Below, in pieces: positions 1,867 to 9,489 of a stretch of 9,489 bases of DNA. Source of the stretch: Octopus sinensis (taxonomy: Eukaryota); the NCBI RefSeq assembly GCF_006345805.1, contig NW_021827925.1, positions 1-9,489 on the forward strand, read 5' to 3'. The position numbers were made by a program, and so were the translations under genes. The first letter of the stretch is position 1. Every line of letters starts with the position of its first letter. The notes under the pieces are model-generated. The model was not told where the DNA came from and searched no databases. It saw only the letters and a program-made list of their open reading frames with translations.

Positions 1867-4497
1867 CTACACACACCACAGGTTAAGACTTACCGCCTTA
1901 CCTGCCTCCAGAATAATCTTCTCTATTCGGACCTCAGAGAGGCCTTTGAGAGATGATTCCTGGGCGTCGGAGAGCTCAGTCCGGAATCCTAAGCCATAGG
2001 CTAGCCTTATGGCTCGTCTTCTTACTTTTTTAAGCACGTCAACATGCTTATCCCTGTCCTCATAGAGGTACCAAGCGTGGACGCCATAGGTCAAGACGGG
2101 TAACACCATGGCGTTAAACACGCGGAACCAGGCACCTCTGCTCAAGCGGAAAGCACGCAACGCACCTAATCGCTGCATTGCACGCATTTTCGTACGTGCA
2201 ATGTGATCATCAAACTTACCGGACGGCTTAAAGAGCACGCCCAAATAAGTCATCCGATCAACTGCAGCGATTGCTGACCCGCTCAGCAATAACCTAGGAA
2301 CAAAATTAGTGTAACCCCTCGTCCTTTTACAGACTTTAAGGACACTGCACTTGTCCGCGCACATTCTCAGACCCCTACTCCCACACCAGTTTGCAAGTCC
2401 ATCCACAGCAACCTGAAGCCTACGACACGCACACTCCGGTTTCATTGAGTGATCCCAGAGGATAATGTCGTCTGCATAGATTACCATTTCAGTACGAGCA
2501 TTGACTGGCATAGGCGCAGTGGCCATAAACACATTGAATAGTGTCGGACTGAGCACAGAGCCCTGAGGGACCCCGCGAAGGACTGTTGCGACTTTAGAAA
2601 AGACCCCCTGATGCCGCACGACCTGCCTGCGAGATTCAAGAAACCCCGACAGCCAGCGCCTTAGACACGGAGAAACCCCACACGTGGCAAGGGAACTCCG
2701 GAGGCCGTCGTGCCACACCGAGTCGAAGGCCTTTTCAATGTCGAGACTAACTAAAATACCGCATTCCCTTTTCTGGAGGGCGTTCTTCATACCAGACGAC
2801 ACCTTGTGAAGGCAGTCCCCGCATGAGCGGCCCTCCTGAAGCCCCATTGGAACTCAGGGAGGGCGTCTGCAACCATCAGCTCCTCCAGGAGCCTTGGTGC
2901 ATAATTCTTTCTAGGATTTTAGATATCGCGGGGAGCAAGGAAATGGGCCTATATCCCCCGGGGACATCATGTGGCTTCCGGGCTTTCCGATAAGGATTAC
3001 CTCAGCCACTTTCCACCTGGAGGGAATCATCCCAAGTCGCAAGCTCCCGTTAAATAAAACCTTTAGTGCAGTGATTAACCGCGGCGGGGCCTTCTTAAAG
3101 ATGGCCATCGGGATCCGATCCAAACCCGCCGCGGTGTTCTTACTTCGGGAGATTGCTGCCAGAATCTCCGCTTCAGTAATTTCGCCTGCATCGTTCCTTG
3201 ATATGCCCAGCTGGCAGCGCTTGTCCCACGACAATATCTGCTGGACAGTATCAAAGGACGATGTCTCTACGAACTGACTTCCGTCAGTTCCCGAGATGCC
3301 ATTGAGATGGGCTGAAAGTATTTCAACCACCTCAACCGGGTCCGAAGCGAGGGTTCCATCAGAGCGTTTAAGGCGCACTGACTTAGCCCCCCTTCTCCCG
3401 ACAGGCTCTTCAACTGCTTCCAGAAGTCCGGAAAGCGAGGGTCCACCCTTCGGCAGGCCCTCTCCCACCGCGAACTTTCGAGTTCGCGGATTTCTCTTCG
3501 GATCTCCCTCTGAAGCCGGCTAATCCAGCCACGAAACCAAACACGGTTCTCCTCGTAAACGCATTTGTCCCGTAGTCTGGATAGCCGGCGCTTGAACCTA
3601 ATTTTATTTAAGATCCGGTGAGGGAGCGTGGAATGTGCCTGACCCTGCACTGAGTTTGTTTGAAATTATCTCGCATGTAATCAGTCAGGGCAGCATTGAT
3701 TCCATTATCAAGCGCCTCCAACTCACGTATGTTGGCGCAGGTATTCCCCACCAGAAGTGAGGGCAACCTGCTGGCCATGAAACTCTCCAGGTTAGCCCAG
3801 GAACCCACCCGGAGGTCAAAGTATCCTGGGACCCTTTGAGGAACTGGCTCACGGAGTTCGTGCAATAGAGGCAGATGGTCGCTCCCAATATCGGACAATA
3901 AAATAGTTTTACTAACCCAATTTAGAAGACCGGGACTGACCAGAGCAAGCCCTAGCCAGTCACGTCCTCCCCTCGCGTCGACGTGGTTTGGCTCGCTCGA
4001 AGTCCGGATTTCCAGCCCGAGGTCTTCAACCAGCGTCTTCAGAGCCAAACCATGCGAGTTGGTTACCCTGAAACCAAGATCTTGATGCTTGGCATTCAGG
4101 TCCCCAACAACCATGGCCTTCGGATGCTTTTCAAAGAACTCCGTACGTGCCAGGAGCACGCCGTAAAGTTCTTCGAGTACATCCCACCTAGGTAAAATGT
4201 TAACTCGCCTATGCGAATTCTCACTTGGAGGAATTTCACACAGCTACATGAACATATACCTGGACTCTGCAAGGCAAGGTAGGGCTTGTAGAAGAGGCTA
4301 GTTCCTGTGCCACATATTGACCCCTGTTTCCAGGGTATGTGACGACAGTTGTAGCCATCAACTACGTACGGACCCCCCTTTACCTTCGTTTCGTTGACCA
4401 CCAGAATGTCCGCACTCGTGGTGGCCAACATCCTCTGAACGGCGTCCCTTTTTCCTTCCAAGGAACGCGCGTTCACCGATATGATGTTGAGCATCAT
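1867..4497 (-). CDS. ORF2 of element A1: APE endonuclease plus reverse transcriptase, broken by several single-base indels
   Basis: APE motifs SVNARS, VVNETK, VVGDLNAKH and SDHLPL. RT motifs AGLDRIP, WKVAEVILIGKP, (Y)RPISLLPAISKILE, QWGFR, LDIEKAFDSVWH, GVPQGSVLSPTLF, YADD (2478-2467) and YLGV. No RNase H domain was recognised. Confidence 0.95.
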
Positions 4498-6315
4498 ATC
4501 GGTTCTTCGCCAAGGATCTTCTTGGCCTCGGCAACGTTGCAGTGTAGCATTTCCTCTACACTGCAATTCATCTCCCTACAAAATTTTAATAGGGAAACGC
4601 ATAATTGCACCGCAGGACTAATACTGTCCTGCGGTACACGCTCGCCAGGGGCTGAGTGCAATGGCATCTCCACGTATGGAGGACGCTTTTCAGCCCCAGG
4701 TTGTGCGGACGGCGCCGCCGTTAGCCGCCTCAGAAGGCATTGCCGGCTTAGGCAACCAAGCGGACTCGGAAGCTTTCACCTGCTTTGCCAACTTTGTCGG
4801 CGAAGGCTGCACCGACCCACACGTAGCATGGCTCACAGGTTCCACTGTCTTCGCCACCCAAACGGATTTGGAAGGTTTGGCCAGTATCGCCTGCTTGCCA
4901 GGTTTTGGCGCAGGGCGCGCGACGCGACGCGGGCGACTTACTGTTGGGATTACATCCCCACCTACCTTCGGGTTGCCTCCTTGAACTTGGGCAACCTCTG
5001 AAGTTGGCAGTGTGTCCCAACTTACCACAGTTGACACCACTGCCTCTCCTTGGATGGTGAGGGGCACGTCTTGCGACCATGCTCCCCACCGCAAATAAGG
5101 CACTTCGCCTTATCCGGGCACTTTGTGGAGATGTGCCCGAACCCCTGACACCGAAAGCATTGGGTGGCTTTCGGGCGGGGCCAGGCAGCTCTCATCCTAA
5201 TGTAGCCGATCCTGGTACCAAGAAGTACCAGGCGCTCAGCTTCTGCAGGAGATCCCAGTGTAATCTCCACCACTTCAAGAGGGCGATTACCCTGCTTGAA
5301 GCGTGCAATGGCAGAGCAACTGGGGTACTCCTGCTGCAGGTGACCTAGGAGGTCATTATCCTCGAAGTCCCGAGGAACCCCGAGGAGGAGGACACTTACC
5401 TTACTTACCTTACGTTCGATCCTGACAAGGCGATGCATGCCAGGACCGAACGGATTTGACTTCTCCAGCTCCCCTTTGAAGCTGGAGAAGTCATCCTCCT
5501 TCTCCCACCCAAGCAGGAATTGGGTAGGCTCCCTCTTCAGGACTCTGTACAGCTTTGAAGGCTGGATAGAGTCTAACGTACCTAAGATCTTTATGACCGA
5601 GGCCTTCCCACTTGTAGGGAGGACCTCAAGTCGTGCCACAGCACCGAAGGTAATTCTGCCCCCGGCGCCAGTGGTCTTCTTTGGGTGTGCATCCACCTGA
5701 TCGGACACACACCCAGTACCTAAAAACATGGGGGGTTGGACGGCCAGCCGCACGTTTGGGTTTCCCCACCGTGTACCAACCGTCCTCAAGGGCAACCTTA
5801 TTTCCTGCCGTACCCACCGGGACGGCCTCAGGAGACGACACCCTGTTGGCATTAATTGACTTACCTAGGCTGGGTTTGGTACCACTAGACAAACCGCAAA
5901 CACGTGGCGAACCAGCATGCTGTGCGGTTGTGGTGGATACCAAACGATCAGAACCAGTTGCACCTGCAGCTCCCCCGACACCAGCCATAGGGGGAGCAGA
6001 GGAAGAAGTGTCTCCAGTGAGTGCTGAACCCACCTGGGAGGGTCCAGGCTTCGACTTCTCCTTCCTGCTTTCGCCTAGAAAATTAAAGACACCACTAGAA
6101 TAGCCGGAAGCGCGTGGCGGTGAACCACGGCTCCGGCAATTCATCGTAGTGGCACACTGAACCGTCTTGTCCTTCTGGGAGAGCGAGGCGGGAACACCTC
6201 CACTTCTGCATAGTCTTCTTAGTGCAGACAGCTTGCGAGCAGATTTTGCAGACAACTGTTTCCTTGGTACTTTTGCACCAGTAGATTTTCGAGCCGTTTG
6301 TTTTGTTCTAGCCAT
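4494..6315 (-). CDS. ORF1 (Gag-like) of element A1 with an N-terminal histone H3 tail; frameshifted
   Basis: Starts [28 protein letters not shown]. Knuckles are [27 protein letters not shown] and [16 protein letters not shown]. The manually read C-terminus ...[41 protein letters not shown] ends at TGA 4496-4494. Confidence 0.88.
6232..6315 (-). other. H3: Histone H3 N-terminal tail (residues 1-27) in frame with ORF1
   Basis: 22/27 identical to canonical [27 protein letters not shown]. No H3 histone fold follows. Confidence 0.95.
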
Positions 6316-6321
6316 ATTTTA

Positions 6322-6519
6322 TTATTTCCCGGTCAAAAGAATAGCTTGCGTGTTGCCGCGCATGATTGTACCAGAGATCCTCTGTCTTAGCCAAGAAGAT
6401 TCGCTTGCATCCATGTTTCTCCGAGCGATAAGGAGGCAGACGTGTTTTAAGAACTTGGATGTTTGCGGGACAAAGGCTGCGGAGATCTCGAATGCCAAAG
6501 GGACAATTACTAGTTGCAT
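6322..6519 (-). other. 65-aa ORF of unknown status in the spacer between the H2B fragment and the H3-tail ATG
   Basis: Open and identical in both copies, ATG-initiated, and stops 6 nt before ORF1. It has only a weak resemblance to the H3 histone fold. Confidence 0.25.
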
Positions 6520-6578
6520 TTGGATTGTTGAAATAGTTATTTAAAGAACAAATAAATAAAACAATTATTTTTAAAGTG

Positions 6579-6795
6579 TTATTTGTATTCTGTACTTAGT
6601 AACTGCCTTTGCACCCTCTGTATAGCATGTTTTGTTAATTCACCGGGAAGAATCAGACGAACTGCAGTCTGTATTTCACGTGAGGTAATGGTAGCCTTCG
6701 AATTCTGATAGACTAGATTTGATGCCTCGGTTTTTATTTTGTCATAAACATCAAATGTGAAACTGTCCATAGCCATCATAGCCTTCTTTGGAAAT
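6579..6795 (-). pseudogene. H2B: 5'-truncated histone H2B (C-terminal half), divergent
   Basis: IS(KK)[49 protein letters not shown] matches H2B helices 2-3. The N-terminal half is absent, and homology starts right at the A-tail of the upstream element. Confidence 0.92.
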
Positions 6796-6797
6796 TT

Positions 6798-6803
6798 TTT
6801 ATT
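6798..6803 (-). terminator. AATAAA poly(A)-signal-like 3' end of unit A2
   Basis: Minus strand reads ...TTATTAAATAAAAAA|TTTCC, joined directly to H2B sequence. Confidence 0.55.
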
Positions 6804-6844
6804 TAATAATTAATTAGAGAGGCTGTTAGTGAGGTAACATAAGG

Positions 6845-6874
6845 AGACCTTCGGCATTCCTGCCTTTTCGGTCC
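6845..6874 (-). promoter_or_regulatory. Putative 3' stem-loop of unit A2
   Basis: GGAC-CGAAAA-GGCA-GGAA-TGCC-GAAG-GTCT has the same fold as 1818-1847 with a different GNRA loop. Confidence 0.5.
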
Positions 6875-6915
6875 AGCACACACGCTCGCCTCTCTACACA
6901 ACCACAGGTTAGGAC

Positions 6916-7203
6916 TTACCGTCTTACCTGCCACCCAGTCATTATCTTCTCTAGGACCTCAGGGAGGCCTTTGAGGGACAATTCCTGGGCGTTGGAGAGC
7001 TCATCACGCCATCCTAAGCCATAGGCTAGCCGGATGGCTCGTCTTCTTACTTTCTTAAGCGCGTCAACGTGCTTTTCCCTGTCCTCGCAGAAGTGCCAAG
7101 CGTGCACGCCATAGGTTAACACGGGTAACACCATGGCGTTGAACACAGGGAACCAGGCACCTCTCCTCAAGTGGAAAGCACGCAACGCGCCTAATCGCTG
7201 CAT
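6916..7203 (-). pseudogene. C-terminal (post-RT) remnant of ORF2 from a sister subfamily
   Basis: [18 protein letters not shown]... aligns to the A1 ORF2 end with 13 differences in 83 aa and many synonymous changes. Confidence 0.9.
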
Positions 7204-9013
7204 CGTTCTTCGCCAAGGATCTTCTTGGCCTCGGCAACGTTGCAGTGTAGCATTTCCTCTACACTGCAATTCATCTCCCTACAAAATTTTAATAGGGAAA
7301 CGCATAATTGCACCGCAGGACTAATACTGTCCTGCGGTACACGCTCGCCAGGGGTGAGTGCAATGGCATCTCCACGTATGGAGGACGCCTTTTCAGCCCC
7401 AGGTTGTGCCGGACGGCGCCGCCGTTAGCCGCCTCAGAAGGCATTGCCGGCTTAGGCAACCAAGCGGACTCGGAAGCTTTCACCTGCTTTGCCAACTTTG
7501 TCGGCGAAGGCTGCACCGACCCACACGTAGCATGGCTCACAGGTTCCACTGTCTTCGCCACCCAAACGGATTGGAAGGTTTGGCCAGTATCGCCTGCTTG
7601 CCAGGTTTTGGCGCAGGGCGCGCGACGCGACGCGGGCGACTTACTGTTGGGATTACATCCCCACCTACCTTCGGGTTGCCTCCTTGAACTTGGGGCAACC
7701 TCTGAAGTTGGCAGTGTGTCCCAACTTACCACAGTTGACACACTGCCTCTCCTTGGATGGTGAGGGGCACGTCTTGCGACCATGCTCCCCACCGCAAATA
7801 AGGCACTTCGCCTTATCCGGGCACTTTGTGGAGATGTGCCCGAACCCCTGACACCGAAAGCATTGGGTGGCTTTCGGGCGGGGCCAGGCAGCTCTCATCC
7901 TAATGTAGCCGATCCTGGTACCAAGAAGTACCAGGCGCTCAGCTTCTGCAGGAGATCCCAGTGTAATCTCCACCACTTCAAGAGGGCGATTACCCTGCTT
8001 GAAGCGTGCAATGGCAGAGGCACTGGGGTACTCCTGCTGCAGATGACCTAGGAGGTCATTATCCTCGAAGTCCCGAGGAACCCCGAGGAGGAGGACACTT
8101 ACCTTACTTACCTTACGTTCGATCCTGACAAGGCGATGCATGCCAGGACCGAACGGATTTGACTTCTCCAGCTCCCCTTTGAAGTTGGAGAAGTCATCCT
8201 CCTTCTCCCACCCAAGCAGGAATTGGGTGGGCTCCCTCTTCAGGACTCTATACAGCTTTGAAGGCTGGATAGAGTCTAACGTACCTAAGATCTTTATGAC
8301 CGAGGCCTTCCCACTTGTAGGGAGGACCTCAAGTCGTGCCACAGCACCGAAGGTAATTCTGCCCCCGGCGCCAGTGGTCTTCTTTGGTGGTGCATCCGCC
8401 TGATCGGACACACACCCAGTACCAAAACATTAGGGGGGGTTGGACGGCCAGCCGCACGTTTGGGTTTCCCCACCGTGTACCAACCGTCCTCTAGGGCAAC
8501 CTTATTTTCTGCCGTACCCACCGGGACGGCCTCAGGAGACGACACCCTGTTGGCATTAATTGACTTACCTAGGCTGAGTTTGGTACCACTAGACAAACCG
8601 CAAACACGTGGCGAACCAGCATGCTGTGCGGTTGTGGTGGATACCAAACGATCAGAACCAGTTGCACCTGCAGCTCCCCCGACACCAGCCATAGGGGGAG
8701 CAGAGGAAGAAGTGTCTCCAGTGAGTGCTGAACCCACCTGGGAGGGTCCAGGCTTCGACCTCCTGCTTTGACCTAAAGAATTAAAAACACCACTAGAATA
8801 GCCGGAAGCGCGTGGCGGTGAACCACGGCTCCGGCAATTCATCGTAGTGGCACACTGAACCGTCTTGTCCTTCTGGGAGAGCGAGGCGGGAACACCTCCA
8901 CTTCTGCATAGTCTTCTTAGTGCAGACAGCTTGCGAGCAGATTTTGCAGACAACTGTTTCCTTGGTACTTTTGCACCAGTAGATTTTCGAGCCGTTTGTT
9001 TTGTTCTAGCCAT
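7191..9013 (-). CDS. ORF1 (Gag-like) of unit A2 with an N-terminal histone H3 tail; frameshifted
   Basis: Same protein as 4494-6315, with indels at different positions. It ends ...[11 protein letters not shown] across the deletion junction. Confidence 0.88.
8930..9013 (-). other. H3: Histone H3 N-terminal tail (residues 1-27) in frame with ORF1, second copy
   Basis: Identical translation to 6232-6315. Confidence 0.95.
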
Positions 9014-9019
9014 ATTTTA

Positions 9020-9217
9020 TTATTTCCCGGTCAAAAGAATAGCTTGCGTGTTGCCGCGCATGATTGTACCAGAGATCCTCTGTCTTAGCCAAGAAGATTC
9101 GCTTGCATCCATGTTTCTCCGAGCGATAAGGAGGCAGACGTGTTTTAAGAACTTGGATGTTTGCGGGACAAAGGCTGCGGAGATCTCGAATGCCAAAGGG
9201 ACAATTACTAGTTGCAT
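9020..9217 (-). other. Second copy of the 65-aa spacer ORF
   Basis: Identical translation to 6322-6519. Confidence 0.25.
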
Positions 9218-9279
9218 TTGGATTGTTGAAATAGTTATTTAAAGAACAAATAAATAAAAAAACAATTATTTTTAAAGTG

Positions 9280-9489
9280 TTATTTGGTATTCGTGTACTT
9301 AGTAACTGCCTTTGCACCCTCTGTAATAGCATGTTTTGCCAATTCACCGGAAGAATCAGACGAACTGCAGTCTGTATTTCACGTGAGGTAATGGTAGCCT
9401 TCGAATTCTGATAGACTAGATTTGATGCCTCGGTTTTTATTTTGTCATAAACATCAAATGTAAAACTGTCCATAGCCATCATAGCCTTC
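9280..9489 (-). pseudogene. H2B: Histone H2B C-terminal half, second copy (cut by window edge)
   Basis: After one missing base it reads ...LILP(G)[21 protein letters not shown], a canonical-like H2B C-terminus with TAA at 9282-9280. Confidence 0.92.

Follow-up and report, generated by a model that had tools for sequence, protein, structure and literature searches.

Element A, a LINE of the APE-RT type, probably obtains its promoter, its 5′ leader, and the start codon of its ORF1 from the histone genes of its host, as judged from sequence comparisons. Three elements lie on the minus strand of the window, a complete contig of 9,489 bases: the short LINE copy A2, the full LINE A1, and the beginning of an element of the related family B. 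ORF1 of A starts with an in-frame histone H3 tail, which the first-pass annotation had put forward as a candidate histone mimic; in our assessment, the element is more interesting for the hijacking of promoters and the serial capture of heads than for mimicry.

Organization of the Elements in the Window

All features described here are on the minus strand. ORF1 of copy 1 (4494–6315) encodes a Gag-like protein with three CCHC knuckles, which PF00098 matches above its cut-off in locus L076, and the ORF1 stop codon overlaps the start codon of ORF2 (1867–4497). ORF2 comprises an APE endonuclease (PF14529, E = 2e-09; PF03372), N-terminal to a reverse transcriptase (PF00078, E = 3e-27). The 3′ UTR and tail occupy 1768–1866; the T-run and C-run at their end resemble the stretch between TATA box and start in the host type-2 H2B promoter, to which the last ~24 bases of A are nearly identical. 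An untemplated or cap-derived origin of the C-run was considered and dropped, since the native H2B promoter holds the same string. A short piece resembling the H2B 5′ leader (1755–1767) lies at the 3′ junction of A, before element B, and a short-read contig of run X2, which comes from the same sample as the run that best covers the window sequence, passes from 1764 into the H2B leader. Family B is represented by its ORF1 with a mosaic head (376–1710, 3′ end approximate) and by the start of its ORF2 (1–341), cut by the contig end.

Copy 1 is preceded by a histone-unit spacer (6329–6577), in which part of a different retroelement, presumably CRE-like, survives as a remnant of its C-terminal coding end, and by the 3′ part (from base 152) of a host H2B gene (6578–6790). 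Both types of histone unit have such a coding-end fragment as a fixed feature between H2B and H3 (also at L004). The possibility that the spacer is a non-coding RNA was dropped in favor of the retroelement relic. The spacer has no Rfam match; Rfam yielded two weak chance matches only on the window and none on seven flank loci. Next comes the 3′ end of family A′ (6791–7203, 86% to A), which serves as the tail to copy 2 (7205–9026), a short, non-autonomous element that consists of the H3 leader, the H3 head (8930–9013), and ORF1 of A, with ORF2 absent. A 460-base direct repeat (6327–6786 and 9025–9489; 97.9% over 466 columns) flanks copy 2, its second unit being another copy of the H2B 3′ part and spacer. 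The same short derivative (A head, ORF1, and A′ 3′ end) also occurs on contigs C13428, C11576, and C10654, and the internal joint of copy 2 is also found in short-read contigs of run X2. The short-read depth of the derivative is close to that of the full element.

ORF1 in the window is interrupted by one-base indels that look like assembly errors; single-base disagreements between the window and the contigs of run X2 are found at 4685, 4705, 4966, 4988, and 5037. Comparison of 21 aligned H3-headed copies (two of 23 were dropped as truncated) reveals that the only indels common to at least 10 of them are +6 and +3, with frameshifts being private or common to at most three. None of the 21 is free of frameshifts, and three have a single break, each elsewhere. 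Since those indels that recur in many copies preserve the reading frame, the tail and the knuckles share one family frame. The earlier statement that the tail continues as ORF1 thus holds for the family frame, but an uninterrupted H3-headed ORF1 is not present among the 21 copies. Frames that run uninterrupted from a histone ATG through the knuckles are found at L076 (579 aa), L127 (513 aa), and L155, the last being a single-copy new fusion behind a native H2B TATA box.

The Histone H3 Head of Element A

The minus strand at 6315–6232 encodes Met and H3 residues 1–27 and continues into ORF1 with no intervening stop; the same start recurs in copy 2 (9013–8930), as had been noticed before. The head of copy 1 is identical to type-2 H3 in 84/84 bases and is preceded by 13 bases of H3 5′ leader (6316–6328), which form the 5′ boundary of that copy. 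In general, the head of A corresponds to the host H3 5′ leader and codons 1–27, all 84 bases of the latter being equal to native alleles: 15 of the 21 exact-length element tails carry the type-2 allele at 84/84, five carry the type-1 allele, and one is mixed. With respect to the full-length H3 gene of the organism itself (PF00125), the tail is identical in 27/27 residues, and the identity of 22/27 given in the first-pass annotation refers to canonical H3.

The exact 26-mer spanning the junction was found 25 times on 17 contigs, compared with 32 native K27–S28 junctions, and a reversed-pattern control gave no matches. The many unrelated flanks of these junctions show that the in-frame fusion of the H3 tail with ORF1 noticed earlier is real, mobile, and present at multiple loci. 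Among the best 30 of 41 matches to ORF1 5′ ends, the histone head is H3 in 27 and H2B in three.

The two codons after K27 (Leu-Ser, 6226–6231) match H3 L20–S21 and represent a remnant of an older H3-derived head, which is longer in H2B-headed copies and in family B. The 34 bases that follow (6192–6225), at the N-terminus of ORF1, match host H4 (A32–V42) at 30 positions, with amino-acid changes at two of 11 codons; the best of 2000 codon shuffles reached 23/34 and none reached 30/34. The sequence beyond K27, which had been described as non-H3, is thus histone-derived as well.

The 5′ boundary of the head is sharp and lies close to the position at which LINE 3′ ends join (−16 to −18). Upstream of the 21 exact-tail copies, there are 20 distinct strings, most of which match the native leader over only 9–21 bases. 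Four H3-headed copies run upstream directly into a native H3 promoter, in agreement with the promoter capture that had been suggested, and these are candidate source copies. On the other side of the element, the remainder of H3 in sense begins none of the 32 distinct 3′ junction strings, in line with its reported absence downstream of the element ends. A single insertion into an H3 gene, named earlier as an outcome that would refute the first-pass reading, is contradicted by both the multi-locus junctions and these 0/32 remainders.

A variant of that scenario, in which one old insertion into an H3 gene was spread passively by unequal exchange and the tail is flanking sequence, is very improbable. 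Many copies do reside in scrambled histone clusters, some of them in tandem units, as passive spread would predict; however, the head reaches non-histone flanks, its boundary 9–19 bases before the ATG is sharp, the duplications are copy-specific, the H3 remainder follows 0/32 3′ ends, and dispersed copies are present on C8697, C12814, C12418, and C11576. A chimera created by the long-read assembly is hardly credible at all: the contig is small and error-rich, and the one short-read contig listed across the junction has only 30 tail letters, below the 31-letter bridging rule, but identical junctions are repeated 25 times on 17 contigs, the sister fusions described below are in frame, and the contigs of run X2 contain the join of the A 3′ end with the H2B leader, as well as the internal joint of copy 2.

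Sister Heads and the Question of Mimicry

Heads derived from other core histones are also present. The H2B-headed copies start with H2B(1–25), identical to native alleles and joined to the same H3/H4 scraps, whereas a form headed by H4(1–52) is found on C8677 (twice), C10743, and C2131, and an A-like related element carries H4(1–49). In family C, the usual start of which is a non-histone sequence, one copy carries H2B(1–52) behind a native H2B TATA box. All five independent joins of a histone coding sequence with an ORF1 lacking its own ATG, namely H3(27)-A, H2B(25)-A, H4(52)-A, H4(49)-A-like, and H2B(52)-C, are in frame, for which the chance is 1 in 243. A sixth join, of H4(70) with a 5′-truncated ORF2, is in frame as well, though selection should not act there. 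The 24 truncated-histone strings comprise these joins, their error variants, full-head joins with their own ATG, and others (an antisense join, deletions, and pseudogenes). Truncated H3 pseudogenes that retain approximately the first 100 bases, with deletions, are recurrent (C10250:36447-36558 and similar).

The mosaic head of family B, which is an older one, consists of an H2B-like start, H3 K14–S21 (about 1621–1647), and two H4 scraps (about 1591–1623 and 1492–1524). Only residues 14–21 of the H3 tail are retained there, at 26/27 bases, and all nine exact matches to the start of family B are B copies. On a tree of 36 ORF1 segments, the bootstrap of which had not fully settled, the H2B heads form one supported clade and the H4 heads another, while the type-1 H3 heads are scattered (six changes for six rows, at least two of them forced).

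Influenza NS1 is an example of the histone-mimic type. If A were of the same type, its H3 tail would be kept for modification or reading, for import, or for tethering, and would aid targeting or evade silencing. Such a role would account for the completeness of residues 1–27 with their native N-terminus, for the prevalence of the H3-headed form (27/30), for the fact that all captured heads are basic histone N-termini, and for the preservation of H3 14–21 in family B. We nevertheless consider it unlikely, and mimicry is not retained as the main reading, because the tail equals host alleles and carries no signal of selection, and because H2B- and H4-headed subfamilies have spread without H3 K4, K9, and K27. 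Furthermore, family C, normally without a histone head, joins the same sites, indicating that the tail is not needed for targeting, and the older H4 scrap is changed at 2/11 amino-acid codons. In a mimic, selection would be expected to maintain the tail-like motif regardless of the histone gene of the host, whereas the heads of A equal native alleles and swap among H3, H2B, and H4. As the tail does not diverge from host alleles, selection on it is unreadable and dN/dS is meaningless. The H3 tail may have a secondary role in import or on chromatin, with mimicry as a side benefit.

Insertion Sites Relative to Histone Promoters

In a set of the 30 best loci of A 3′ ends, picked regardless of flank, a histone ATG follows the T-run by 12–31 bases in nine (about seven events), two of which precede another A head. 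A remnant of the H2B leader is present at a further four loci, and neither feature at 17, so that histone targeting is a preference.

The position of the joins was analyzed in another set, biased to histone contigs by construction, for which all LINE tails with a histone ATG at most 100 bases downstream were collected. It contains 30 strings, and five families (A, A′, B, C, and D) are represented. In this histone-biased set, assessed by eye and with homopolymer indels allowed, 28 of the 30 tail/histone junctions are in sense at +20–22 of a TATA-like box, as counted from the first base of the box; in H4 the box is CATAGG, not TATA. The joins are found at −9/−10 in H2A, −22/−23 in H2B, −17/−18 in H4, and either −31/−32 or −16/−18 in H3, depending on the promoter type. 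Because the sequences at the joins differ among H2A, H2B, H3, H4, and other sites, with no single fixed target sequence, the targeting rule is one of position.

Among 33 strings with tails of the B/C type (one false match was dropped), six precede a histone ATG and three (seven loci) join one site in a dispersed repeat. This non-histone repeat (L179, L199–L217), with 81 exact matches, comprises tandem GCTCGCTGCGCTC units, a TATA box, and a hairpin, and 3/16 distinct upstream strings (20 further copies) carry other LINE-like tails at the site. Located 22 bases past a TATATTTAA box, which also precedes the hairpin, the LINE site of the repeat is joined by three tail types. An interpretation of the repeat as a spliced-leader gene was unsupported.

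In histone genes that are complete in other respects (L019, L021, L022, L028, L049, and L110), further LINE families, whose tails are (CATT)n and (TTCG)n, occupy the place of the promoter, and many of the histone genes sampled have a LINE tail there. Two A copies (L081 and L093) were inserted separately at almost one and the same non-histone position, and so were one A and one B copy (L103 and L191).

Flanking Duplications and the Origin of the Heads

Of the 23 full-length copies, six have a complete flanking duplication, five a partial one, and 12 none in the flanks examined. The complete duplications, with lengths of 277, 341, about 575, about 915, 1233, and 1436 bases, start at the 3′ junction and end at the head; one of the six copies (on C8901) sits in a tandem repeat. 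On C8744, the ~915-base repeat spans from the start of H2B to the next H3 gene, and the head merges with native H3 behind the promoter of the latter. An ideal founder, in which promoter, head, element, and an intact gene for the same histone follow each other, was not found among the copies examined.

The heads might also have been acquired on the RNA level, by a switch of the reverse transcriptase from LINE RNA to histone mRNA or by joining of the two RNAs, with the long duplications being a separate matter. The start of the heads near the inferred mRNA start would fit such an origin, and chimeras of the U6/L1 kind, among them fusions of first-exon mRNA with L1, have been reported (bioRxiv 10.1101/2025.02.02.635956). 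It is, however, an improbable one, considering that the single-copy fusion L155 has a native H2B TATA box in front of it, which is what joining at the DNA level would produce, and that the array on C8744 joins native H3 at the end of the 915-base duplication. A chimera would still need a promoter, which start-site targeting supplies.

Proposed Mechanism

The preferred reading, that A acquires its promoter and head at histone genes by DNA-level joins, builds on the junction positions, duplications, reading frames, and allele identities, all of which are directly observed in the sequences. Insertion would take place at the histone transcription start, a site we infer from the position of the joins, and could be guided to it by the initiation complex or by open DNA. 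The DNA from the join to hundreds of bases downstream is duplicated in some copies, so that the new copy lies behind the promoter and is followed by a copy of the gene. If the 5′ join falls in frame within the histone coding sequence, the histone promoter would drive a histone-LINE transcript, and translation of ORF1 from the histone ATG would give rise to a subfamily with a new head. The head may further serve as a homology arm, with later 5′ joins overwriting it with the local allele; the equality of heads and local alleles would be explained if the head could anneal to native genes. The H3 tail would then be the current product of a capture cycle, with the H2B and H4 heads and the older scraps being others. 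No RNA run carrying the element was present among the sequencing runs listed, and A may instead use an internal promoter, or its ORF1 may start downstream, at a Met near residue 58.

A broader reading, of which we are doubtful, envisages a LINE clade living wholly off Pol II core promoters. The pre-initiation complex or an open start site would position the endonuclease, while duplications on the kilobase scale would preserve the host gene. An ORF1 without its own start would serially capture histone N-termini, the histone TATA segment in the 3′ tail of A could drive downstream sequence, and the captured tails would also provide import of the particle or chromatin binding.

Carrier Organism of the Contigs

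The contigs probably originate from a co-assembled organism with small introns and not from the labeled host. Dicyemids live in octopus, and a dicyemid is a likely identity for this organism. A conventional H2B set, 79–84% to query P0148, is found on chromosome-size contigs (C2, C3, C9–C12, C27, and C30), whereas a divergent set, about 60% to P0148, is found on small contigs only. The presence of the divergent H2B set, the LINEs, and short-intron genes on small contigs argues for a second organism. Proteins that match the element almost completely are labeled Octopus sinensis in databases, where genes of the second organism would thus bear the name of the host. In eight further runs labeled as this species, next to none of the sampled words are present, although this does not prove absence. 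Two apparent GT-AG introns, each 27 bases long, interrupt a gene on carrier contig C8901, and the sampled carrier stretches have 31–40% GC; for Dicyema japonicum, a mean intron of 38 bases, 36.7% GC, and 49% repeats are given in a passage of PMC6736024.

The closest H2B relatives (P0127 and P0209) are a 75% protein labeled as ant, from a 2,255-base contig, and an 83% fragment, which suggests that related organisms are hidden in other data sets. In runs X5, X6, and X7, with other organism labels, low-depth coverage of A and H2B is scattered and does not extend to bases 5848–6201, and the ESM Atlas yielded generic H2B clusters only. The core histones, H4 among them, diverge to an unusual degree, and the C-terminus of H2A is short (L004, L087, and L108).

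Comparison with Known Elements

Element A shares with LINEs of the Jockey/I group a Gag-like CCHC ORF1 and an APE-RT ORF2, a likeness of domain layout; the RT relatives of A are 26–38% identical. For the 579-aa ORF1, a word-index search found nothing and an exhaustive search found relatives, the best outside ones including PRE_C2HC proteins labeled as pseudoscorpion and Drosophila. PRE_C2HC is linked to the Jockey/I group. Histone similarity is present in none of 150 ORF1 relatives (best E 0.09). Jockey/I-group LINEs carry an internal promoter of their own in the 5′ UTR. In A, both the 5′ end, made of a 9–19-base histone leader and histone codons, and the start of ORF1 are host histone sequence. 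No LINE that targets histone genes or bears a histone head was found in a search of largely open-access literature, and the first-pass annotation had likewise been aware of none; histone-gene-associated Tx1 families may be in print, as may an insertion of 297 in the TATA box of a Drosophila H3 gene.

A multicopy gene family offers shelter to A, as such families do to R2, Keno/Tx1, Mutsu, and Dewa. R2 arises by processing of an rRNA co-transcript (title of a reference in PMC5035012), and A would likewise lean on host transcription. Elements of the R2/Keno type have one fixed target sequence, whereas A joins four different histone sequences by position. The targets of multicopy-gene LINEs named in passages of PMC4494074, PMC3706591, and PMC5035012 are rRNA, snRNA, tRNA, microsatellites, and transposons, and the word "histone" does not occur in these papers. 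If our reading is true, the few multicopy refuges known for non-LTR elements would be extended by the histone genes, which are protein-coding and transcribed by Pol II.

With Ty3 and TRE5, A shares a constant distance to a promoter element across genes (28/30 at +20–22 in the biased set, and +22 in the dispersed repeat). Ty3 integrates where Pol III starts transcription, and the ORF1 protein of TRE5 binds TFIIIB (PMC5911963, PMC6673722). Their targets are Pol III genes, whereas those of A are protein-coding core histone genes, joined in sense orientation, and only in A does the coding sequence of the target join ORF1. Ty3 is, unlike A, an LTR element, and TRE5 of Dictyostelium inserts 44–54 bases upstream in opposite orientation, in contrast to the sense orientation of A. 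If true, this would be a case of targeting by an APE-type LINE according to the position relative to the TATA box, and a promoter-seeking APE-RT enzyme that spares its target gene would interest genome engineers.

Flanking duplications hundreds of bases long are also known for Dualen-4b_cRei and rotifer R9, with medians of 900 for Dualen-4b and 126 for R9 (passage in PMC9977147). Dualen has two endonucleases, whereas in A only an APE domain was detected, and that passage of PMC9977147 describes neither promoter targeting nor head capture for Dualen or R9.

The closing comparison is with L1 5′ transductions, such as RAP1GDS1-L1, in which a LINE transcribed from a host promoter moves host 5′ exons (passage in 10.1101/2025.02.02.635956). 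These are rare (17 insertions in that passage), whereas in A the captured part is framed with ORF1 and represents the normal state of whole subfamilies. The nested layers of A, together with one single-copy event, record the gain of 5′ ends and ORF1 N-termini by a LINE from host genes, and they allow questions about the turnover of LINE 5′ ends and the joining of the second strand to be addressed by tests in a single system.
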